Of a stretch of 32,000 nucleotides of DNA, positions 5,210 to 31,944 are shown in pieces. Source of the DNA: an uncultured Erysipelotrichaceae bacterium. GTDB lineage: Bacteria > Bacillota_I > Bacilli_A > Erysipelotrichales > Erysipelotrichaceae. Below the pieces are notes generated by a model. The model had not been told where the DNA came from. It saw nothing but the letters and a program-made list of their open reading frames with translations, and searched no databases. A program made the translations under genes and the position numbers. The stretch covers positions 1,230,001 to 1,262,000 of the forward strand of contig OW818653.1 of NCBI GenBank assembly GCA_942492995.1, in the 5' to 3' direction. The first letter of the stretch is position 1. The number at the start of each line of letters is the position of its first letter.

Positions 5210-6214
5210 TTAAAGTAAATACATTCCAAATTGATTAAACATGAAACCAATAATCATAATCCCAACCACGACAATCGACACAAACACAATAAGTAATTTA
5301 GGCTTAATAACTTTTTTTAACATGACGATACTTGGAAGGGATAATGCGGTTACTGCCATCATAAACGCTAAGGCAGTCCCAATCCCAACACCTTTAGAAA
5401 CAAGAGCTTCCGCAATTGGTAATGTCCCAAAGATATCCGCATACATCGGTACACCAACAAGGGTCGCTAGTGGAACTGAATACCACTTATCGACGCCAAG
5501 TAGTGCCGTAATAAACTCTTCTGGTACTACATTATGGATAAGTGCCCCAATCCCTACACCAATTAATACATAAATCCATACTTTGCGAACAATCTCTTTT
5601 ACGGATTCACTCGCAACACGAATACGCTCTTGAGTAGTTAATTCTTCTAATTCCATTTCTGGTAAACCAGATTTACGAAATACAAATGCTTCAACTTGAT
5701 CTTCCATTTTAAGTTTAGAAATGATTGTGCCACTGAATACAGCTAACAGAACTCCCACAACTACATACGCTAATGCGATTTTCCAATTGAAGATACTCGC
5801 AAGAAGAATAACTGAAGCTAAATCCACAAGCGGAGATGATATTAAAAAGGAAAATGTTACACCGATGGGTAATCCAGCAGATGTAAATCCAATGAATAGA
5901 GGAATTGATGAACAAGAACAGAATGGGGTGATTGTGCCTAATACTGCGCCAATCAAGTTCGCACTTACCCCTTTATATCTTCCCAATATTTTACGCGTAC
6001 GTTCAGGTGGAAAATAACTTTGAATGTACGAAACACCGAATATTAAAACAGATAATAAGACGAATATTTTAACTGTGTCATATAGAAAGAATTGTACACT
6101 AGCACCAAGTTGACTCTGATTATCTAATCCAACTAGGTTTACAAGTCCGCCCATTAAGTCACTTAACCATGTCATTTTTAAGAATACGTCATTTATAAAA
6201 CTAAATATCTGCAT
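5210..6214 (-). CDS. ArsP-like (COG0701/DUF318-type) permease with vicinal Cys pair
   Basis: 334 aa polytopic membrane protein with a TPFCSCSSIP motif (a CxC pair within a TM segment), as described for organoarsenical permease ArsP. It sits between arsR and acr3. Confidence 0.75.
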   Translation of the reverse strand: MQIFSFINDVFLKMTWLSDLMGGLVNLVGLDNQSQLGASVQFFLYDTVKIFVLLSVLIFGVSYIQSYFPPERTRKILGRYKGVSANLIGAVLGTITPFCSCSSIPLFIGFTSAGLPIGVTFSFLISSPLVDLASVILLASIFNWKIALAYVVVGVLLAVFSGTIISKLKMEDQVEAFVFRKSGLPEMELEELTTQERIRVASESVKEIVRKVWIYVLIGVGIGALIHNVVPEEFITALLGVDKWYSVPLATLVGVPMYADIFGTLPIAEALVSKGVGIGTALAFMMAVTALSLPSIVMLKKVIKPKLLIVFVSIVVVGIMIIGFMFNQFGMYLL

Positions 6215-8995: not shown

Positions 8996-9530
8996 TATTC
9001 TTCTCCTTTAACTTAATAATTGTTTCTTTTGACCATTCAAGATACGCAGAGTTTGTCTTAATCCCAAAATCGATTACAGATAGTACATCAGAGTGATTAT
9101 GAAATGGGTCATCAATCGATTCTAATTCTTTTTTAAATTGGTTCAAGATAAAGAGTTCTTGTTTATGTTGAAGTTCGAATTGCTGGATATGATTAATCAT
9201 AATTTCAGGTTCCACAATTCCCGCAAAATAGCGTTTCAATAAAATCTCTAAACGAAAGGACTCCGTATCTGGACGAATCATCAACCATTGTTTTAACTCT
9301 TCATATCCAAGCTGGGTGATACGATACAACTGTTTACCACGTTCAGATTCAAGTTCAATACATTCGATTAAACCATCTTCTATCATTTTTTTTAATTCAG
9401 GATAAATTTGTCCATACGATTCATTCCAAAAGAACTTAAAACGGATATCGATTATTTTCTTAATGTCATATCCACTTAATGGATTTTCAGTTAATAAACC
9501 TAATATGACATATTGAGTCTTACGCGCCAT
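8988..9530 (-). CDS. PadR-family transcriptional regulator
   Basis: MARKTQYVILGLLTENPLSGYDIKK...YGQIYPELKKMIEDGLI is the PadR winged-helix signature. The track start at 9554 is a TTG; the ATG at 9530 gives the usual PadR N-terminus. Neither start has a strong SD, so the start is uncertain by 8 codons. The stop overlaps the next ATG by 8 nt. Confidence 0.85.
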   Translation of the reverse strand: MARKTQYVILGLLTENPLSGYDIKKIIDIRFKFFWNESYGQIYPELKKMIEDGLIECIELESERGKQLYRITQLGYEELKQWLMIRPDTESFRLEILLKRYFAGIVEPEIMINHIQQFELQHKQELFILNQFKKELESIDDPFHNHSDVLSVIDFGIKTNSAYLEWSKETIIKLKEKNNE

Positions 9531-23127: not shown

Positions 23128-23475
23128 CTATTTATGTCCTTCAGTTGGGACGATACAAATGAACTTTAATACTGCATTCGATGTATTTTGAAACTGATGA
23201 AGTTCATTTCCTGGAACATACGCATATGAACCAGCTTGTATTGAATTCTCTTGTCCATTTAGAAACAATGTCCCATTCCCTTCCACAATATAATTGATAT
23301 GTGGCCATGGATGTTGGTGGCGTGGTGTAAATCCACCCGGTTCAAGTTCAAATACACGCATGACGTGATTATCCCAACCTTCGTTTGATCCAACCAATAC
23401 TTTCATTTTAGCCTTATCCGCTAATGGGTTTTGTACTACTTTATTCTCTAAATCGTTTACATGTCCAAGTGGCAT
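23128..23475 (-). CDS. Cupin-domain protein (metal-binding single-domain cupin)
   Basis: 115 aa. Cupin motif 1 is GGFTPRHQHPWPHINYIVEG and motif 2 is GSYAYVPGNELHQFQN. Confidence 0.85.
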   Translation of the reverse strand: MPLGHVNDLENKVVQNPLADKAKMKVLVGSNEGWDNHVMRVFELEPGGFTPRHQHPWPHINYIVEGNGTLFLNGQENSIQAGSYAYVPGNELHQFQNTSNAVLKFICIVPTEGHK

Positions 23476-23524
23476 AATGTTTACCTCAAATTAATACTTC
23501 ATATAATACCATAAAGCTATAATA

Positions 23525-24211
23525 CTATTCAGTAATTCGCTTTAATGCGTTTATGTTTTTTACGATAATCTTACGTTGTCCGATTAATTCGATAACTCCT
23601 TCATCTTGAAATGAGGTTAGTTTACGACTTAATGTTTCTTGACTCATCCCAATCGACGACGCAAAATCACCTTTCGTCATATTCAATGTAATCTCATTTC
23701 TTTGATTAACTAAATCAAGTAGTGCTAATGCTAAGCGTTGTTCAACTGTATTAAGATTTATTTTCTCAATCAATGATTCAGCTTGTTCTAAACGTTTACT
23801 TAAAACTTCCATAACTTTAAACGCAATGGATGGATACTTATTCATCAATTCTTTTAACTTATTTCCATCAATCATACACATAAGCGTTTTCTCAAGTACT
23901 TCCGCATTATCAGTTAATGGTGTATTACTTAATAGCGTTAATTCTCCCATAAATTCGCCAGGTTCGACGATGCGAAGAACTTGTTCCTTACCATTAATAT
24001 TTAATCGTGATATTTTAACTCGACCTGAATGCAGAACATACAGTTTGCCTCCCAAATCATTTGCCATGTAGACATATGATCCTTTATCAAACTTTGCCTC
24101 AGTTGTAATATTCGCAATTTCCAACATTTCTTCTTCTGTTAGATTACTGAAAATAGGAACGATTTCGATACAATTGGATGGATTCTCATCTTGGTGATGG
24201 TTACATGTCAT
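23525..24211 (-). CDS. Crp/Fnr-family transcriptional regulator, FNR-type recognition helix
   Basis: 228 aa. It has a cNMP-binding-like beta-roll (GEFMGEL) and a C-terminal HTH, GMSQETLSRKLTSF, carrying the E-x-x-S-R motif typical of the FNR/FixK branch. The N-terminus is MTCNHHQDENPSNC (Cys3, His5, His6, Cys14), and there is a Cys at position 112. Confidence 0.85.
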   Translation of the reverse strand: MTCNHHQDENPSNCIEIVPIFSNLTEEEMLEIANITTEAKFDKGSYVYMANDLGGKLYVLHSGRVKISRLNINGKEQVLRIVEPGEFMGELTLLSNTPLTDNAEVLEKTLMCMIDGNKLKELMNKYPSIAFKVMEVLSKRLEQAESLIEKINLNTVEQRLALALLDLVNQRNEITLNMTKGDFASSIGMSQETLSRKLTSFQDEGVIELIGQRKIIVKNINALKRITE

Positions 24212-24244
24212 AGTTATCTCCTGATATTATCATAACTGATTCGA

Positions 24245-26086
24245 TTACTTTTCTCTATATTTAAGCAATCCTACCGCATTTAATATAACTAAGAAGACGG
24301 ATAGTTCATGAATTAACATACCTAAGGATAAGTTAACTGTTTTGATTAAAACACCAGCTAATAGAAACCCTGCCACAAGTAGAGCAAATACGATATTTTG
24401 CGTCATATTTTGAACGGTCTTACGACTTAATCCAAACGCATAGATTAGTTTTTTAATCTGCGATGATAATAATATAACATCTGCCGTTTCCATCGCAACA
24501 TCCGCTCCAGCTTGTCCCATCGCTATTCCAATATCGGCACTTGCAAGAGCTGGCGCATCATTAACACCATCTCCAACCATTGCGACTAAACCATATTTAG
24601 TTTTAAGGTTATTTAGTACTTCGACTTTGTTTTCTGGGAGTAAATCTCCATAGAATTCATCAATTTGAAGTTGTTTCGCTATTGATTCTGCAGTTCTATG
24701 ATTATCCCCTGTTAACATAATGACATTAATATTCGCTTTATGAAGTTGTTTAATCAGTTCATGTGAATCATCACGTATCGCATCCGCAATCATGATTAAC
24801 GCAAGGATCTTTTTATCATTGCTTAAGAGTATAGTTGTATAGCCTTGTTCTTCTTCATGTTTAATCTCTTCTTCAATATCACGATAATCAATGTTTAAAC
24901 TCTTCAGTAAGTTTCGATTACCAATTCGATAATGTGTACCTAAATAATCAAATTGAATGCCTAATCCAGTCAAAATTTCGATGTTATCTATTTTCTCTGA
25001 TAAATCAATCTTTTCAGTTTGTGCTTTAAGAATTATCGCCTTACCTAATGGATGTTCAGAATACGATTCTCCAAGTGCCGCAATTTTTAGTGCGTCATGT
25101 TCAGATAGTTCAAATGTCTTAATTTTCTTAACTTCTGGTTTACCAATGGTTAATGTCCCAGTTTTATCAAACGCAACAGCTTTTATTTTACCTAATTTCT
25201 CAATTGATTCTCCACCCTTAAATAGAACTCCATAATTCGCACCATTCCCAATTCCAGCCACGATCGAAACAGGTGTAGATATAACAAGCGCTCCAGGACA
25301 TGCGATCACGATGATCGTAAGTGATAATTCAACATCACGTGTAATTAAGTACATCACAATGGAAAGTACGACAATTGATGGTGTATAGTAAGCTGAGAAT
25401 TTTTCGATAAACTTCTGTGTTTTTGCCTTACTATCCTGCGCATCTTCAACTAACTGTAAAATATGTGCAAATGTTGTATCATCCCCAATTTTTTGAGCTG
25501 AAATAACTAAATAACCTGATTCAATGGTTGTGCCAGAAAAAACTGAATCATTTAGTGATTTATATACAGGGAGTGATTCTCCAGTAATTGATGATTGATT
25601 CACATACGCATTCCCTTCAAGTACACTTCCATCAACAGAAATTTTCTCACCTGGTTTTACGATTACAGTATCATCTATCAATACATCATCTACTCCAATA
25701 ACAATTTCTTTTCCATCGCGTAGAACTGTTGCCTTTTTTGGCGCTAGATCAAGAAGTGCTTTAATGGAAGATCGTGTTTTTTCGATTGTACGTGACTCTA
25801 GATAATCACCTAGCATAAACAAGAACGTAACTGCCGCAGCTTCCCAATATTCACCAATTAAAACAGCCCCAATAACCGCGATGGTCACAAGGGCATCAAT
25901 TCCAATAATTTTATAGCGAATTGCACTAAATGCTTTCTTGAATATTGGTGTTCCAGCAATAACGGTTGTGACCAACATAAAGATATTCGCATATAAGCTT
26001 AAATCTTCAAATTGTCTGAGAATAAACGCAATCGAAATCGTTATTAGAGAACTTGTGATAATTTGTTTTTTAGTTAATTTAAACAT
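24245..26086 (-). CDS. P1B-type heavy-metal-translocating ATPase lacking an N-terminal metal-binding domain; atypical CPG transmembrane motif
   Basis: 613 aa. Signatures include TGES, DKTGTLT, SEHPLGKAI and GDGVNDAPAL. The TM metal site reads IACPGALVISTP where CPC or SPC would be expected. The last TM helix reads LIHELSVFLVILNA. No HMA domain is fused. Confidence 0.9.
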   Translation of the reverse strand: MFKLTKKQIITSSLITISIAFILRQFEDLSLYANIFMLVTTVIAGTPIFKKAFSAIRYKIIGIDALVTIAVIGAVLIGEYWEAAAVTFLFMLGDYLESRTIEKTRSSIKALLDLAPKKATVLRDGKEIVIGVDDVLIDDTVIVKPGEKISVDGSVLEGNAYVNQSSITGESLPVYKSLNDSVFSGTTIESGYLVISAQKIGDDTTFAHILQLVEDAQDSKAKTQKFIEKFSAYYTPSIVVLSIVMYLITRDVELSLTIIVIACPGALVISTPVSIVAGIGNGANYGVLFKGGESIEKLGKIKAVAFDKTGTLTIGKPEVKKIKTFELSEHDALKIAALGESYSEHPLGKAIILKAQTEKIDLSEKIDNIEILTGLGIQFDYLGTHYRIGNRNLLKSLNIDYRDIEEEIKHEEEQGYTTILLSNDKKILALIMIADAIRDDSHELIKQLHKANINVIMLTGDNHRTAESIAKQLQIDEFYGDLLPENKVEVLNNLKTKYGLVAMVGDGVNDAPALASADIGIAMGQAGADVAMETADVILLSSQIKKLIYAFGLSRKTVQNMTQNIVFALLVAGFLLAGVLIKTVNLSLGMLIHELSVFLVILNAVGLLKYREK

Positions 26087-26108
26087 AAATCCTCCTTTTC
26101 AAAATCAA

Positions 26109-26324
26109 TTACTTTTCGCTAATTACGTTATAACCTAATTGATGAATTTTCGCCTTTATAAGTGCAGAAGTTACTTGTTCTTCATTAAAACTTACTTTTA
26201 CTCGAGAAGAGTTAAATAACACTTCAGACGTTTCGATTCCTTCGGTTTGTTTTAACATTCCTTCAATTTTTTTAATACAACTTGGACAAGATACTGTTTC
26301 TAATTGATATGTTTTATTTTGCAT
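26109..26324 (-). CDS. Stand-alone heavy-metal-associated (HMA) domain metallochaperone
   Basis: I place the start at ATG 26324 (MQNKTYQLETVSCPSCIKKIEG...; AAGGAGA RBS 5 nt upstream), giving 71 aa. It has the CxxC motif in the usual HMA loop. Confidence 0.85.
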   Translation of the reverse strand: MQNKTYQLETVSCPSCIKKIEGMLKQTEGIETSEVLFNSSRVKVSFNEEQVTSALIKAKIHQLGYNVISEK

Positions 26325-26391
26325 AATGTTCTCCTTGTCGAACAATTTAATTGTTTGATATCTAAAGTATACTCATTTTAATAATAGATAC

Positions 26392-26462: not shown

Positions 26463-27407
26463 ATGCACAACCAAACAATCTCAAAAGCCTTCTCGATTCA
26501 AGGCACGACTCATAAGAAAGAATACTTTGAAGGCTGGTATTTCAAACAAGTTAATCTTAATCATGGTGTGACAATTAGTTTTATATTTGGCTATAGTACT
26601 AATACAATTAATCCTCATAGTTTCATTCAAATTATTCGTACTAATCCATTAAAAACATATTATATTAGTTATCCTTTAGATGATTTTATTTCAATCGATG
26701 ATGGGTATCAAATTGGTAGTACTTTTTTCTCAGTTAATGAACTCAAACTTAATATTGATACGGATGAGATTCGTTGTATCGGACATTTAAGTTTCAATAA
26801 TCATACTGAACTAAATGGAAGTAATTGGTATATGCCGACGATTATGGGGCCTTTTTCATATATTCCTAATATGGAATGTAATCATGGTGTTGTGAGTATG
26901 CATCATAGCGCAAATGGGACACTAAAATTAAATCATGAGTCATTTGAGTTTAAAGATGATATCGGATATATTGAAAAGGATTGGGGAACATCTTTCCCTA
27001 ATCGTTATATATGGCTTCAAGGCAATCATTTTACTGAACCTAATACTTCATTTATGTTAAGTGTTGCGAACATACCATTCTTAGGGTTGAATTTTGAAGG
27101 ATTAATCGCTTCATTAAATATAAATAATCGATCTTATCGTTTTGCGACATATACTGGCGCATTTAAACGTAAACTAACTAAAAATGATAATGGATTCGAA
27201 TTGATAATCCATCGTGGATTTTATAAACTAATCATTAATGTACATATTGATGAACAAGCTGATCTTGTTTCACCTCAGAATGGATTGATGATGAATACAA
27301 TCAAAGAAGGATTAGGCGGTAAAATTTCATTATCGTTGTATCATTTTAATAAATTGATTTGGACTGGATTATCCAATAATTGTGGAGTTGAGATTGAAGG
27401 ATATTAA
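26463..27407 (+). CDS. Tocopherol-cyclase-like family protein (function unknown in this context)
   Basis: 314 aa. The N-terminal ...KKEYFEGWYFKQV... matches the FEGWYFK motif I recall from the tocopherol cyclase (VTE1) family. No TM helix or signal peptide is visible. The assignment is from memory of one motif plus size. Confidence 0.45.
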   Translation: MHNQTISKAFSIQGTTHKKEYFEGWYFKQVNLNHGVTISFIFGYSTNTINPHSFIQIIRTNPLKTYYISYPLDDFISIDDGYQIGSTFFSVNELKLNIDTDEIRCIGHLSFNNHTELNGSNWYMPTIMGPFSYIPNMECNHGVVSMHHSANGTLKLNHESFEFKDDIGYIEKDWGTSFPNRYIWLQGNHFTEPNTSFMLSVANIPFLGLNFEGLIASLNINNRSYRFATYTGAFKRKLTKNDNGFELIIHRGFYKLIINVHIDEQADLVSPQNGLMMNTIKEGLGGKISLSLYHFNKLIWTGLSNNCGVEIEGY

Positions 27408-27436
27408 AAGGTAAACGATTGTTTACCTTTTTTAAT
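27407..27436. terminator. Hairpin terminator shared by convergent genes
   Basis: AAAGGTAAAC-GATT-GTTTACCTTT, a 10-bp perfect stem, followed by TTTA on the plus strand. The reverse reading ends in UUUUAAU. It sits between the stops at 27407 (+) and 27441 (-). Confidence 0.7.
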
Positions 27437-27440
27437 TTAA

Positions 27441-27977
27441 TTATTCAACTGTTAGAGCTCGTAAATGAATTTCATCGAGTTCTTTCGTTCCAAGAATTTT
27501 TTCACTTAGCCAAGCAATTCCTAAAATACCAAATATATTTAAACTAAATCGAGTAATTGTAAAGATAAGCCCCATCGAGGATGCTTCAAATAACAATAAT
27601 GGAATTTTGGTTGTGGACCATGCGCCTATAAGTATTAATACGTTTTTGAATGAACTTCCTTTTCGTAATAACGTTAACGCAACAGGAAATGCGGCATAGA
27701 GTGGTCCTGCAGCAGCAGATCCTAAGAAGAATGCTAACAACATCCCAACTGATCCGCTATCTTTGCCCATCATTTTGACCATCGTTTCGCGTTTAACCCA
27801 AACATCAAGTAATCCTAATAAAACGAATACAGGGGGTAAAACCATTATCATTTCTATGAAACTCGAATACGTCTTTTGTGTACTTGAATTAAATAATGCG
27901 TTATCAAAGAAATAGATAATTCCATAAATAACTAATAGTATAAACACTAATCTATATTTCTTAATGGTGTTCTTCAT
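27441..27977 (-). CDS. Half-size permease, subunit 2 of a split permease pair
   Basis: 178 aa with about 5 TM helices. It carries the motif GSAAAGPLYAAFPVALTLLRKG...TKIPLLLFE. It has an ATGA overlap with the upstream half. Confidence 0.65.
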   Translation of the reverse strand: MKNTIKKYRLVFILLVIYGIIYFFDNALFNSSTQKTYSSFIEMIMVLPPVFVLLGLLDVWVKRETMVKMMGKDSGSVGMLLAFFLGSAAAGPLYAAFPVALTLLRKGSSFKNVLILIGAWSTTKIPLLLFEASSMGLIFTITRFSLNIFGILGIAWLSEKILGTKELDEIHLRALTVE

Positions 27978-28450
27978 ACTAATATCACTCCTATAACAAG
28001 CGCTACAAGAAGTGAGAATAAGAATGCTAAACCATTTCTCAAATAAGCAGCTTTTTTGCCAAAATATTTAACTTCTAATGGTATTGTGACAATTCCAACC
28101 ATCATTAATGTAGAGATGAATGCGGCAATTTGCATATACCCCGCCCCATTTTTTAACAGTGCAGCCGATAATGGAAATGCGATAAAGCCTGGGATAAGCG
28201 TGATTGAACCAATTATTGACGCTATTAATACTCCAATCCATCCAGATTCACCACCAATGAATTTCGATATTTGAGTTGGATTAAGCACACTTAGCACAAC
28301 TCCTATTATGAGTAAAATACTTAAGAATTGAGGAAGGATGTTTTCAAATGATTTCCATGCTTTCTTTAGTGCTTGAACTGTTTTTCCTTTTGATTTATAC
28401 CATGAAATCCCAAGTGCAACCCCCGCAATGATATAGGCAATACTATCCAT
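27974..28450 (-). CDS. Half-size permease, subunit 1 of a split permease pair
   Basis: I place the start at ATG 28450 (MDSIAYIIAG...), giving 158 aa. The longer track ORF would run 66 nt into the upstream gene. It carries a motif paralogous to subunit 2: GSITLIPGFIAFPLSAALLKNG...VTIPLEVKY. Confidence 0.65.
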   Translation of the reverse strand: MDSIAYIIAGVALGISWYKSKGKTVQALKKAWKSFENILPQFLSILLIIGVVLSVLNPTQISKFIGGESGWIGVLIASIIGSITLIPGFIAFPLSAALLKNGAGYMQIAAFISTLMMVGIVTIPLEVKYFGKKAAYLRNGLAFLFSLLVALVIGVILV

Positions 28451-29165
28451 GATGATGTCCTTTATGATCATGTGAATGATTATGTGACCCACAACCTGAA
28501 CATTCATGTCCAACAAGTTCTTTATTTAACGTATTATTCAAATACGCTTCAAGTGCTTCATTAATATTCTTGTCTTCCGCATTGACACATTTAATGTTGA
28601 GAGCAATTAAACGATTATATGCACCTTTCCCCATCGTATTCATTATCAATACATCTACCCCAAGATCTTTAAGAAATTGTGGACGTTCTTGATGAACATG
28701 TACATCATCATGAATTTTTCTTTCACTAACTTTAACATTGTCTATTATTTCATAAATTATAAAGTCATTACATTGCCCAAAATGACCAGCAACTTTTTCA
28801 CCATCTACACCTATTGCGATTTTCATATTAACTTCTCCCTTTTCGTTTATGTTTAATGTATTCTCAAACATGTTATTTGAGTTGTAAGTAACATTACCAC
28901 CTTCAATTTCAAGTATTATTCCTCGTACGAGAGCTTCCGCGATTTTCATTCTTGCGCTTGCATAAATACGTTGTACAGTCGTTCTACTTATATTCATAGT
29001 AGAAGCACAGTTCTCTTGACTGAGTCGTTCAAAGTCACATTTACGTATAACATCGAATTCATCTAAACTTAATTTAATCTTTTCATGTGATTGTATTTTC
29101 TCAGGCACAAATTTACAACAAATCGGATTATCTCTAATATTTCTTTCTTTTACTGGTCTTGGCAT
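28443..29165 (-). CDS. DUF134 (UPF0251) HTH domain fused to a NifX/NifB-C-type cofactor-binding domain, with a His/Cys-rich tail
   Basis: 240 aa. The N-terminus, MPRPVKERNIRDNPICCKFVPE...LSQENCASTMNISRTTVQRIYASARMKIAEALVRGIILEIEGG, matches the DUF134 pattern. The middle section, MKIAIGVDGEKVAGHFGQCNDFIIYEI...VLIMNTMGKGAYNRL, matches the NifX/NafY/NifB-C family pattern (HFG motif). The tail GHECSGCGSHNHSHDHKGHHHG has 8 His and 2 Cys in 22 aa. Confidence 0.7.
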   Translation of the reverse strand: MPRPVKERNIRDNPICCKFVPEKIQSHEKIKLSLDEFDVIRKCDFERLSQENCASTMNISRTTVQRIYASARMKIAEALVRGIILEIEGGNVTYNSNNMFENTLNINEKGEVNMKIAIGVDGEKVAGHFGQCNDFIIYEIIDNVKVSERKIHDDVHVHQERPQFLKDLGVDVLIMNTMGKGAYNRLIALNIKCVNAEDKNINEALEAYLNNTLNKELVGHECSGCGSHNHSHDHKGHHHG

Positions 29166-29177
29166 ACTACCTCATTT

Positions 29178-29224
29178 TGAACATATGTTCATAACTATTA
29201 TACCTTTTACTTGAGTTAATGCAA
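29178..29224 (-). promoter_or_regulatory. Promoter TTGCAT-N16-TATAAT with a perfect 14-bp palindrome operator over the TSS
   Basis: On the minus strand, -35 TTGCAT lies at 29224-29219 and -10 TATAAT at 29202-29197. Five nt later comes TGAACATATGTTCA (29191-29178). A GAGG RBS and the ATG at 29165 follow. Confidence 0.65.
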
Positions 29225-29268
29225 TAAAAAGCCAAATGTTTATCGTGCAAGGAGTAACATTTGGCTTT
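29223..29268 (-). terminator. Rho-independent terminator after the flavin reductase gene
   Basis: AAAGCCAAAUGUU / AACAUUUGGCUUU form a 13-bp perfect stem with a 15-nt loop, followed by UUAUU. It begins 21 nt after the stop at 29290. Confidence 0.75.
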
Positions 29269-29289: not shown

Positions 29290-31086
29290 TTAGCGTTTTA
29301 ATGCGGCACTTTCGCCCGCAATTCTACCGAATACAGTCACATCCGCTAGTGCATTTCCACCTAAGCGATTCGCACCATGAATACCACCAGTAACTTCACC
29401 AGCAGCGTACAATCCTGGAATGATTGCGCCAGTCGCATCAATAACTTGTGTGAATTCATTGATTTCAACACCACCCATTGTATGATGCACTGTTGGTACA
29501 CGTGCACCTGCATAATATGGAGGCGTATCTATTTTCTTATCGAATAATGTTCTACCAAATGCGTCAGGTTTTCCTGAATCGACAGCCGCATTAAATTCTT
29601 CTACAGCTTTGACTAGATTTGCAGGATCAACACCGATTTGTGCAGCTAATTCTTCTAATGTATCACCTTTGAAAGCACGTCCTTGTTCAATTAGGCCTTC
29701 AATTGTTTCATTAAAGTTATTTGTTGTTTCAGGTGTTGGATAATTCTTCGCATCCAATACAACCCACATCTTAGTTTCTTCTTGTTCAAACAATGCCTTC
29801 GTCATAACATCTCTACGTTGACCTTCATCAACGAAACGATTTCCATCGATATTAACGAAGATACGGTTTTCTACGCCTTGTTCGATATTACCACTTAAAC
29901 TACCTGTTACAGGATCGCCCATTGGTAATAATTGTATTGCGCTCATACCAATAAGATTTGCGCCTACTTCTTCAGCCATCACAATCCCATCACCTGTTGC
30001 GCCAGGATGATTGGTTGTTTTAATGCCTTCAAGTGTTGGCCAAATTTCATTGTATTTCTCTAACATTTCTTGGTTAGCGGAGAATCCACCTGTCGCAAGA
30101 ATAACCCCATTGTTCGCGTGAAGTATAACATCACCTTCCAATGATTCTGCTTTAACCCCAGTTACACGACCATCTTCGATGATTAGTTCGAGTGCTTCTG
30201 TATCAAGTAGAACTTCGATACCTTCATGCGTATCAATATAGTTTTGATAAGTACTGATAAATCCAGTTCCAAGTGGCGTTGTAGGTTTGTGTGCTCTTGG
30301 CCACATTCCACCTAAAACAGTAAATACTTGGTCTTTAAATTCCATGCCTAATCCTTCTAACCAAACAACTGCAGAATATGCATTTTCAACTAACGTTTGA
30401 ATCAAGACAGGATTGCCTTGTTTATCTCCACCTTCATACGTTTGTGTGAAGTGTTTTTCAACTGAATCTTCAATATCTTGTGCTTCTTGACGTACAGGAT
30501 CTACCGCATTAAATGCCCCACCGGATAGAATCGTATTACCACCAAGTCTTGACATCTTTTCTACTACAATAACAGTTGCGCCATTTTCATTAGCGGAAAC
30601 TGCAGCTGCTAATCCAGCTCCACCCCCACCAATAATAACTACGTCTGTTGTATATTCCTTAGTTTCGCCTTTAACAGCTGCACTATCATTCTTAACATTT
30701 AGCTTTTCAATATCAGCACCAGCAAGCTTTAGAGCTTCAGAAGCGCCATTAATAATTGCTTTACTGGAAACTGTTGCCCCTGAAATTGTATCAACCGCTA
30801 AACTTTGTTCATCAACGATCGCTACTGGAATTCTTTCAATCGCCGCATCAGAGATACTTGGACTTTCCATGTGATCTAAAATATTAACTTCTAGAATTTC
30901 GCTATCACTAACAACTACTTCAACTGTCATGTCCCCATTATGACCTGCGACAGTTGCTTCATATGTTCCAGCTTTGAATAACGCTTCATTACTTGATGAT
31001 TGACATCCAACAAGTGACATTAACATTAATACACTGAAAACGATAGACACTAACTTTTTAGTAAAACTTCTTTTCATTTCCCTCAT
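29290..31086 (-). CDS. Extracytoplasmic lipoprotein flavin reductase: FMN-bind domain plus FAD-dependent fumarate/urocanate-reductase-like (flavocytochrome c type) domain
   Basis: 598 aa. The signal peptide has the lipobox LVGC. The FMN-bind domain carries the flavinylation motif D-T-I-S-G-A-T. The FAD dinucleotide fold is VVIIGGGGAGLAAA. C-terminal catalytic motifs are VHHTMGG and HGANRLGGNA. Confidence 0.88.
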   Translation of the reverse strand: MREMKRSFTKKLVSIVFSVLMLMSLVGCQSSSNEALFKAGTYEATVAGHNGDMTVEVVVSDSEILEVNILDHMESPSISDAAIERIPVAIVDEQSLAVDTISGATVSSKAIINGASEALKLAGADIEKLNVKNDSAAVKGETKEYTTDVVIIGGGGAGLAAAVSANENGATVIVVEKMSRLGGNTILSGGAFNAVDPVRQEAQDIEDSVEKHFTQTYEGGDKQGNPVLIQTLVENAYSAVVWLEGLGMEFKDQVFTVLGGMWPRAHKPTTPLGTGFISTYQNYIDTHEGIEVLLDTEALELIIEDGRVTGVKAESLEGDVILHANNGVILATGGFSANQEMLEKYNEIWPTLEGIKTTNHPGATGDGIVMAEEVGANLIGMSAIQLLPMGDPVTGSLSGNIEQGVENRIFVNIDGNRFVDEGQRRDVMTKALFEQEETKMWVVLDAKNYPTPETTNNFNETIEGLIEQGRAFKGDTLEELAAQIGVDPANLVKAVEEFNAAVDSGKPDAFGRTLFDKKIDTPPYYAGARVPTVHHTMGGVEINEFTQVIDATGAIIPGLYAAGEVTGGIHGANRLGGNALADVTVFGRIAGESAALKR

Positions 31087-31196: not shown

Positions 31197-31299
31197 ATAT
31201 TCTAACTTGAGAATATTTTAACGAACTAGTTCACTGAACTTATTCATTATATTATAGGGTAATTAATGGCGTCAATATGATTTGTTAATATATTATCAA
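31197..31299. promoter_or_regulatory. Divergent control region with three palindromic elements (candidate TetR operators)
   Basis: ATATTCT-N6-AGAATAT lies at 31197-31216. The overlapping palindromes GAACTAGTTC and GTTCACTGAAC lie at 31223-31239. An 18-bp palindrome with one mismatched pair, TTGTTAATATATTATCAA, lies at 31282-31299, about 35 nt upstream of an extended -10, TGGTATACT (31332-31340). Confidence 0.5.
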
Positions 31300-31362
31300 G
31301 CGTTTTTCACAAGTGATAAATTAGTGTGTTATGGTATACTTACTTTGGAGTTTTTAATTAAC

Positions 31363-31944
31363 ATGAACATCGAAAAACAAACAACTCGGCAAGCACAAGC
31401 CCAACAAACAAAAGATAAAGTTTATCAAGTTGCGATCGAGCTATTTGAGACAAAAGGATTTGAAAATATCACTGTAGATGAGATATGCAAAGTCGCAAAT
31501 GTTTCAACTGGTACGTTTTATAATGTATTCAAATCTAAATACGAGATTTTAGATCGAATATTTGAATTAGCGGATGATTATTTTAATGAAACGGTTAAGA
31601 ATACGGTTTTATCTGATAATACAAAGGATCAAATATTAACTTACTTTGATTACTATGCACTTTATAATTTGAAATGTGGAATTAAATTTACTAAACAATT
31701 GTATAATGTTAAAAATAATTTGTTCGCTAAAGAGAATCGACCAATGCAGATAATATTAAAAGAAATTATCGAAAATGGACAAAATAAAAAAGAACTTGAT
31801 ACAAGTATGAGTTCCAATGAAATCGTTCAATTCTTATTTATTTGTGTTAGAGGATTAGTCTATGATTGGTGCTTGAGGGATGGATCATTCGATTTAAGAT
31901 TAGAAATAAAAACATTAGTTACGCGTTTATTAAAGACAATATAA
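31363..31944 (+). CDS. TetR/AcrR-family transcriptional regulator
   Basis: I place the start at ATG 31363 (MNIEKQTTRQAQ...; GGAG 12 nt upstream). The track start at 31282 is a TTG inside the promoter palindrome. The N-terminal HTH is FENITVDEICKVANVSTGTFYNVFKSKYEI. Confidence 0.88.
   Translation: MNIEKQTTRQAQAQQTKDKVYQVAIELFETKGFENITVDEICKVANVSTGTFYNVFKSKYEILDRIFELADDYFNETVKNTVLSDNTKDQILTYFDYYALYNLKCGIKFTKQLYNVKNNLFAKENRPMQIILKEIIENGQNKKELDTSMSSNEIVQFLFICVRGLVYDWCLRDGSFDLRLEIKTLVTRLLKTI

Follow-up and report, generated by a model that had tools for sequence, protein, structure and literature searches.

Bacterial metalloregulators of the ArsR/SmtB, CsoR/RcnR and ModE types share an operon logic in which a small dimeric repressor with Cys/His ligands is paired with a palindromic operator on its own promoter, and a transporter gene occupies the same transcript. 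ModE additionally has its helix-turn-helix (HTH) fused to a dedicated cofactor- or anion-binding domain. In this study, we examine a three-gene unit with similar logic in an uncultured Erysipelotrichaceae bacterium (assembly GCA_942492995.1, contig OW818653.1, positions 1,230,001 to 1,262,000; this whole stretch of 32,000 nucleotides is called the window below). The trio lies head to tail on the minus strand and comprises a regulator gene (29165-28443), whose product joins a DUF134 HTH to a NifX-like domain, and the genes of two half-size ArsP_1-type permease subunits, pA (28450-27974) and pB (27977-27441). The likeness to the named regulators covers the palindrome, the transporter genes in the transcript, the Cys/His ligands and a presumed dimeric repressor. 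There is no sequence or fold relation, in that the regulator here is built from a DUF134 domain resembling sigma region 4 and from a NifX/Di-Nase domain as the candidate sensor. No description of the NifX/Di-Nase fold as the sensor domain of a transcription factor was found in the literature.

The other parts of the unit also have described relatives. The ArsP family of organoarsenical efflux permeases (TC 2.A.119; for example Campylobacter ArsP, Shewanella Shew_3410 and B. anthracis BAS1632) has members linked to metal(loid) stress, and methylarsenite efflux is known among its relatives. Its published topology is internally duplicated, with 4+4 transmembrane segments (TMS; PMC7176098); the 4-TMS repeat is homologous to both pA and pB, which here are separate genes rather than fused repeats and which lack the vicinal cysteine pair CSC. 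An ArsP_1-family permease from two adjacent genes is likewise known in SMU.746/747 (ScfAB, YcgRQ), which consists of a full-length 8-TMS permease and a non-homologous 2-TMS partner (PMC5584981), unlike the two homologous halves here; this “two-component permease” was rejected as the same system because its architecture differs. Also comparable in arrangement are the short-chain CHR chromate pairs and semiSWEET, in which adjacent genes each encode one repeat of a duplicated transporter, although the families differ. The NifX/NafY/NifB-C proteins, orange protein and the Di-Nase domain of MrpORP have the same fold as the second domain of the regulator, and other members of the fold bind FeMo-co (iron-molybdenum cofactor) precursors or a Mo-Cu cluster. 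The domain studied here keeps the HFG motif, with a nearly invariant His128, but differs from these proteins in its fusion to a DNA-binding domain, in lying in a window with no nif genes, and in the replacement of GxGHG by Cys132, Asp134 and His152.

The sequence-only reading from which this work started had proposed that the trio is an autoregulated module with a promoter-borne palindrome as its operator. Comparative evidence on the box and on the trio now makes the proposed autoregulated regulator-transporter module well supported. The promoter (29197-29224, minus strand) has a -35 element TTGCAT (29224-29219), a 16-nt spacer and a -10 element TATAAT (29202-29197). The 14-bp palindrome TGAACATATGTTCA (29178-29191) begins 5 nt later, between the -10 element and the ribosome-binding site, within a 20-bp box TTATGAACATATGTTCAAAA (29175-29194) that we predict to be the DUF134 operator; promoter and palindrome were found exactly where they had been placed. 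A consensus scan did not list this promoter because its -35 element matches TTGACA at 3 of 6 positions. A perfect palindrome of 14 bp carries no significance by itself in this window (34% G+C), and that argument was rejected: the window has two, and first-order Markov simulations give 3.7 on average. The second, TATGATTAATCATA at 9188-9201, is within chance expectation, and the 32-kb window contains no extra copies of the box beyond matches with 2 or 3 mismatches inside open reading frames (ORFs), which are also within chance expectation. The significance of the palindrome comes from its conservation across orthologues and not from its perfection.

To assess this conservation, the 130 nt upstream of the regulator start were aligned for orthologous loci (denoted L001 and so forth) from genomes and assemblies at 48-82% protein identity. 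Of the 13 orthologous upstream regions listed, 12 have an identical core ATGAACATATGTTCAT, and the remaining one, that of L087, differs from it by a single A to G substitution; the core usually extends to the 20-bp palindrome TTATGAACATATGTTCATAA. The box is placed 3-5 nt after the -10 element and about 10 nt before the start codon in all aligned orthologues, and the promoter spacer and surrounding sequence diverge freely around the invariant core. The -35 and -10 hexamers and their 16-nt spacing recur in L001, L081, L084, L086 and L002.

The box also extends beyond the orthologues. An exact scan of metagenome contigs for TWATGAACATATGTTCAWAA returned at least 120 contigs; in 76 of the 120 listed there is a DUF134 gene, whose start is mostly 11-40 nt downstream from the box, and their DUF134 domains are 33-54% identical to that of the window. 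Among the same 120, the box lies directly upstream of a DUF5320 gene in 8 and of a NifX-like gene in 3. A box-preceded, stand-alone NifX-like protein in L122 (1336-1764) has a long internal His-rich insert, HQHEHHNHEHHNHEHHNHEHHG, which indicates that poly-His decoration recurs in the regulon outside the regulator. A more distant set of 78 DUF134-NifX fusions at 33-40% identity, from Clostridia, spirochaetes and others, carries a shorter, related box, TGACATATGTCA (consensus tATTGACATATGTCAgAA). Within 160 nt upstream of the fusions, this form has a density of 4.77 sites per kb, versus 0.086 per kb elsewhere in the same loci, a 55-fold difference; it is present in 47 of the 78 loci, with two copies in 12. 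One copy often overlaps the -35 element (TTGACA is half of the box) and another follows the -10. The box thus follows DUF134 genes across phyla and differs in form from one DUF134 clade to another, a pattern that in comparative work is the usual mark of an autoregulator with its operator. Its placement over the transcription start or the -35 element argues for repression. On this comparative footing, the palindrome is a predicted operator of the whole DUF134 family and is not private to this locus.

Other identities of the palindrome were considered. The idealized Firmicute LexA box, CGAACATATGTTCG, has the core GAAC-N4-GTTC, and this core, with a central ATAT, is contained in TGAACATATGTTCA. 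The palindrome could then be a LexA (DinR, Cheo-box) site, with the operon belonging to the SOS regulon and not autoregulated. The core, however, is flanked by T and A instead of C and G, the form TGACATATGTCA of the distant fusions is not a LexA core, and no LexA, RecA or Uvr families occur among the 66 other ORFs that flank the 20-bp box in the contigs listed. The linkage to DUF134 genes across phyla in the 76 contigs also argues against LexA, and on this family-wide linkage and the lack of SOS genes beside the box we rejected a LexA site as the least probable of the identities considered. That CRP/FNR or some other factor binds the box, with DUF134 having a different role, is very unlikely for partly the same reason, in that those contigs carry DUF134 itself and the form of the box changes together with the DUF134 clade. 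The 5-4-5 architecture of the palindrome does resemble FNR-type sites, and a CRP/FNR-family protein is encoded 5 kb away in the window (23525-24211), as well as in L081 and in 5 distant loci, but the P0008 contig, L086, L087 and L090 have no such gene within 6 kb.

A role in RNA was weighed in the same manner. Since the palindrome is downstream of the -10 element, it is probably transcribed, and it might act as a hairpin in the 5' untranslated region that affects mRNA stability or translation, rather than as a protein-binding DNA site; the sole natural variant, the A to G change of L087, would retain a G-U pair. The predicted fold is nevertheless weak (-3.9 kcal/mol, z -1.07), the sequence is conserved and not the pairing, and the copy that overlaps the -35 element in distant fusions is untranscribed. 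Given the weak hairpin and the lack of any Rfam match at gathering score, we rejected an RNA element, which we regard as highly improbable and close to LexA in this respect.

The operator would control three tightly coupled genes. The regulator gene ends in ...HHHG-TAG, and its last 8 nt, stop codon included, are shared with pA, which begins with an ATG; at the next junction, ATGA, the stop of pA overlaps the start of pB. Re-reading of the sequence confirmed both overlaps, as well as the single three-part ORF of 240 aa, at the coordinates first proposed. Shine-Dalgarno-like GAGG, AAAGGA and AGGAG precede the starts of the three genes. Terminators bracket the unit, as had been suggested, and the folding of each hairpin is significantly more stable than that of shuffled sequence. 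The upstream hairpin (29223-29268, minus strand; 13-bp stem, 15-nt loop ACTCCTTGCACGATA, T-run) has an RNA fold of -15.7 kcal/mol (z -4.4) and is the intrinsic terminator of the upstream flavocytochrome c gene, insulating the trio. The downstream, bidirectional terminator (27406-27431, both strands), identified by a terminator scan and common to a convergent tocopherol-cyclase-like gene, has a z of -6.6, with folding energies of -12.0 and -12.1 kcal/mol for its two strands. The loop of the upstream hairpin is unusually large and is invariant in L001, L081 and L083-L085, where the promoter spacer diverges; the hairpin lies at about 5900-5945 in both L001 and L081. Its stem shows one compensatory G-C to A-T change among the orthologous loci, and the gene upstream of it varies, being the flavocytochrome c gene in the window and one with a faint DUF2202 match in L081. 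From these sequences the hairpin seems to be part of the control region of the regulator rather than of the upstream gene.

Domain searches agree with the predicted composition of the regulator. Residues 3-92 (domain at nt 28890-29159) match PF02001 DUF134 (E 2.5e-20, 73.3 bits versus a cut-off of 27), and residues 121-209 (domain at nt 28521-28832) match PF02579 Nitro_FeMo-Co (E 1.8e-19, 70.3 bits versus 26.3), with a linker between the two. The Cys/His-rich tail GHECSGCGSHNHSHDHKGHHHG (nt 28446-28511) is present as claimed. The DUF134 domain has weak Pfam matches to sigma-70 region 4 over residues 31-75, and its RTTV...Y..AR helix is invariant in 61 homologues. It is predicted to bind DNA in a sequence-specific manner, for which the indirect evidence is that the box co-occurs with DUF134 genes and that the modeled HTH superposes on sigma region 4 (9m98_F) with a root-mean-square deviation of 0.9 over 47 residues. 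No solved DUF134 structure was found in a search of the PDB. In the AlphaFold2 (AF2) model of the regulator (predicted local distance difference test, pLDDT, 81), a three-helix HTH follows short strands and precedes an alpha/beta domain, and linker residues 96-104 and tail residues 223-240 are disordered. The modeled NifX-like domain superposes on PH0822, MJ0327 and TM1816 (Foldseek target-normalized TM-score, TMt, about 0.8), with further fold matches to NafY, NifX and orange protein and a TMt of up to 0.86 overall; its profile matches in the PDB include 1o13 and 1t3v (E 1e-21 to 1e-22). The domain is not NifX proper, as TIGR02663 scores 19.5 bits against an equivalog cut-off of 112, nor is the protein an MrpORP (NF041136, 63.9 bits versus 450), of which the C-terminal Di-Nase part alone matches. 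Consistently with what had been noted, no nitrogenase genes were found among the window ORFs scanned against Pfam. Searches returned 102 homologues of the regulator, and the fusion architecture occurs in at least 588 species-level genomes.

The permease family had been predicted to be ArsP/DUF318-like, and pB (178 aa, 5 TMS) matches PF03773 ArsP_1 at 37.4 bits, above the cut-off of 32.3, with pA (158 aa, 4-5 TMS by hydropathy) just below it (28.6 bits, E 9.9e-7). Each subunit covers model positions of about 9-140 of 294, which is the N-terminal half of ArsP_1, and the two are homologous to each other (BLASTP E 1e-8, 23% identity). With 4-5 hydrophobic segments in each, the pair fits the published internal duplication, and pA and pB together should rebuild the 4+4-helix architecture of the ArsP family as a heterodimer. 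The AF2 model of pB is all-helical (pLDDT 78), and no fold in the PDB was found to match the permease half. There are 5,756 homologues of pB, and pA is always paired with pB in the loci examined; this split pair has a much wider distribution than the regulator.

The trio, which had been expected to stay together in other genomes, is conserved in orthologues down to 48% identity. The same overlapping junctions are found in the window, L001, L081/L082, the P0008 contig, L086, L087 and L090/L091. Outside this clade, a stand-alone DUF134 gene and, after it, the gene of a full-length ArsP_1 permease (E 1e-58) make up 16 box-linked operons among the contigs listed, as in L120 (681-2047), L196 (10364-11344) and 14 further metagenome loci, so that the DUF134-ArsP_1 association is real and older than the clade of the window. 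By analogy, these operons resemble ars operons with a DUF134 regulator instead of ArsR; the full-length ArsP_1 relative of L120 carries a CSC motif (MCSCSIIP), and genes for Thioredoxin_3, S-adenosylmethionine methyltransferase and DsbD_2 recur further down the chains. The stand-alone DUF134 proteins are of about 100 aa; in the examples read, the N-terminus is rich in Cys and a GGCC motif is present at the C-terminus. As far as the loci compared indicate, the combination of a NifX fusion with a split permease is specific to the clade of the window. In 5 loci, DUF134 and NifX are not fused but encoded by two neighboring genes, which indicates that the fusion joins functionally linked partners. 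The regulator family is also tied to another split transporter, of an unrelated kind: beside 15 of the 78 distant DUF134-NifX fusions, and divergent from the regulator, stand paired genes for half-size chromate transporters (PF02417) (for example in L008, L013, L017, L022 and L023).

We propose the following model for the trio. The operon would run from 29224 to 27441 on the minus strand of an Erysipelotrichaceae-like, gut-type anaerobe. Its DUF134 HTH, resembling sigma-70 region 4, would bind the palindrome (TTA)TGAACATATGTTCA as a dimer, and the regulator bound between the -10 element and the ribosome-binding site would block its own gene and the two genes coupled to it. The NifX-like (“Di-Nase”) domain and the Cys/His tail would be the sensing part, in which binding or loss of a thiophilic metal ion or metal-sulfur species at Cys132, Asp134, His152, His158 and HEC-x2-C may alter DNA affinity, such that the permease is produced at times when its substrate needs transport, most likely by export. 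The data show the domain composition, the coupling of the genes, the conserved trio and the linkage of the box to DUF134 genes across the family; we infer that the regulator binds as a dimer and represses instead of activating, which ligand it senses, and what the permease moves and in which direction. As a whole, an autoregulated operon that senses a thiophilic metal or metal-sulfur species and moves it with a split permease is, in our judgment, slightly likelier to be right than wrong.

The earlier proposal that the NifX-like domain and tail sense a metal or a metal cluster, still tentative, draws on composition, clade-specific residues, relatives and gene neighborhoods. Cys132, Asp134 and His152 are 95-100% conserved in the clade of the window versus 0% in the distant fusions; His128 and His158 are family-wide, the clade has a conserved H-E-C-x2-C motif, and a Cys/His-rich tail of variable sequence terminates every fusion. 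ArsP/DUF318 relatives have been connected with zinc resistance by fitness data (10.1101/072470), with Zur binding (PMC6336718) and with silver induction (PMC10694973). These features point to metals, but the signal might instead be redox or Fe-S cluster status, as for IscR, SufR, RirA and NsrR: the NifX-like domain and the C-x2-C of the tail would hold an O2-labile cluster, its loss under oxidative or thiol stress would derepress the operon, and the permease would carry a thiol or sulfur compound rather than a metal. PF02579 is present in 65% of anaerobes versus 7.6% of aerobes (PMC13386939), and the Di-Nase domain of MrpORP binds Fe-S clusters (PMC6345978), a finding that also speaks for a metal-sulfur ligand. 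In L037, another copy of the box is situated upstream of a thioredoxin gene. The regulator operons also contain a small membrane protein with conserved Cys motifs, whose Fer4_5 matches (E 5e-5 to 0.033) are around or below the Pfam cut-off. Most of the redox-type neighbors, however, sit outside the operon, the GxGHG motif is replaced in this clade by Cys, Asp and His, which are more typical of a mononuclear metal site, and the long poly-His tail suggests metal ions. We therefore rank a sensed metal or metal-sulfur species with an exporting permease first, and Fe-S or redox status, which we consider unlikely as the signal, as a strong second.

Several observations weigh against the proposed metal-sensing module or its generality. 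Recurrent neighbors encode thioredoxin, rhodanese, CoA-disulfide reductase(-rhodanese), thioredoxin reductase (trxB), PerR-Dps, rubrerythrin (also rubredoxin-rubrerythrin) and C_GCAxxG_C_C proteins, and these thiol- and peroxide-stress functions point as much to redox stress as to metals; other DUF134 operons carry Mrp/NBP35 ATPases and ferredoxins, along with the Thioredoxin_3 and DsbD_2 genes mentioned above. The ArsP-type vicinal cysteine pair is absent from both halves (GSITLIP in pA, GSAAAGP in pB), which have no conserved Cys or His and whose invariant polar residues are Asp58, Glu64, Lys124 and Glu131, so that a soft-metal substrate is not obvious. Most split permease pairs have no DUF134 neighbor. 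In the sister clade L002 and L088 (52-54% identity), the regulator and box are kept with no adjacent permease; the permease pair of this clade lies behind trxB (L092), and the exact box GAACATATGTTC is absent from that locus, degenerate forms of it being unsearched. The same 20-bp palindrome also occurs directly upstream of unrelated genes for a winged HTH (MarR/ArsR-like) nucleotidyltransferase, followed by HEPN genes, in about 7 contigs listed (L145, L180, L204 and relatives); its presence before these toxin-antitoxin-like pairs means that the sequence is not exclusive to DUF134. Finally, no functional description of DUF134 or DUF5320, or of such an operator or regulon, was found in the full-text literature.

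The regulator of the sister clade is followed by a stand-alone NifX-like gene, a Fer4_5-like membrane protein of about 186 aa and a protein of 114 aa. The membrane protein, with conserved YCPR and WCxxCP motifs, was observed in L086 (7719-8279), L088 (7245-7802), L090 (2154-2723) and L037 (5317-5898). It matches Fer4_5 at E 1.5e-7 in L037 and at E 5e-5 to 0.033, around or below the Pfam cut-off, in L086, L090 and L088, the match of the L088-type sister clade being the weak one (E 0.033). It follows the permease pair in L086 and L090 and accompanies DUF134-NifX regulators in close and distant clades; it is absent from the window.

Other genes surround the trio in the window. Upstream lies the gene of a lipoprotein flavocytochrome c (FMN_bind and FAD_binding_2; 29290-31086, minus strand), with a divergent TetR gene at 31282-31944 (plus strand). 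In Sedimentibacter-like contigs (L093/L094, 2374-4196), a split permease pair that lacks the regulator has the gene of a like flavoprotein directly upstream, which hints at a functional link between flavocytochrome c and split permease. The tocopherol-cyclase-like gene (PF14249; 26463-27407, plus strand), which is convergent to pB and shares its terminator, keeps the same position in L081, L082 and the P0008 contig. Four genes at 23128-26345 (minus strand) encode a P1B-type ATPase, a separate CopZ-like HMA protein, the CRP/FNR-family regulator and a cupin. The 613-aa ATPase has no N-terminal metal-binding domain and has CPG instead of the usual CPC membrane motif. This cluster is present in L081 and absent from the P0008 contig, and is thus not an obligate partner of the trio.

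The fusion itself is widespread and already labeled by domain in databases, as [quoted passage not shown], whereas the literature, as anticipated, contained no functional description of the architecture that we could find. The most useful new result is the family-wide predicted operator. By analogy, the trio would work like a classical autoregulated metalloregulator-transporter operon, assembled from an uncharacterized HTH family, a NifX-fold sensor and a split ArsP permease; split ArsP-family permeases are documented by the relatives of this pair as a common form, predicted to be heterodimeric (>5,700 homologues). More tentatively, and with somewhat less confidence than we place in the model of the trio, DUF134 may be a large, anaerobe-centered family of autoregulators with a single operator, TGAACATATGTTCA, and its variant TGACATATGTCA in the Clostridia fusions. 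The regulon would then be an uncharacterized system for handling metal-sulfur species or thiophilic metals, made up of NifX-like carriers, DUF5320, Mrp/NBP35, ArsP_1, Fer4_5-like and thioredoxin-like proteins.

DUF134 (COG1342) and the PF02579 proteins that are not associated with nitrogenase rank with the most widespread genes of anaerobes that lack an explanation. PF02579 has been used as a marker of anaerobiosis (PMC13386939), and several of its structures came from structural genomics (entries released 2000-2010), from which a function was not found. The locus and its relatives provide a predicted DNA target, the first for DUF134, a predicted regulon, and a compact three-gene module whose permease output can be assayed, and they make directly testable what NifX-like domains bind outside nitrogen fixation. 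If the family-wide reading of DUF134 is true, the NifX carrier fold has been recruited as the sensor of a one-component regulator in the NifX fusions, this locus included, which would represent a new class of cluster- or metal-sensing transcription factor.

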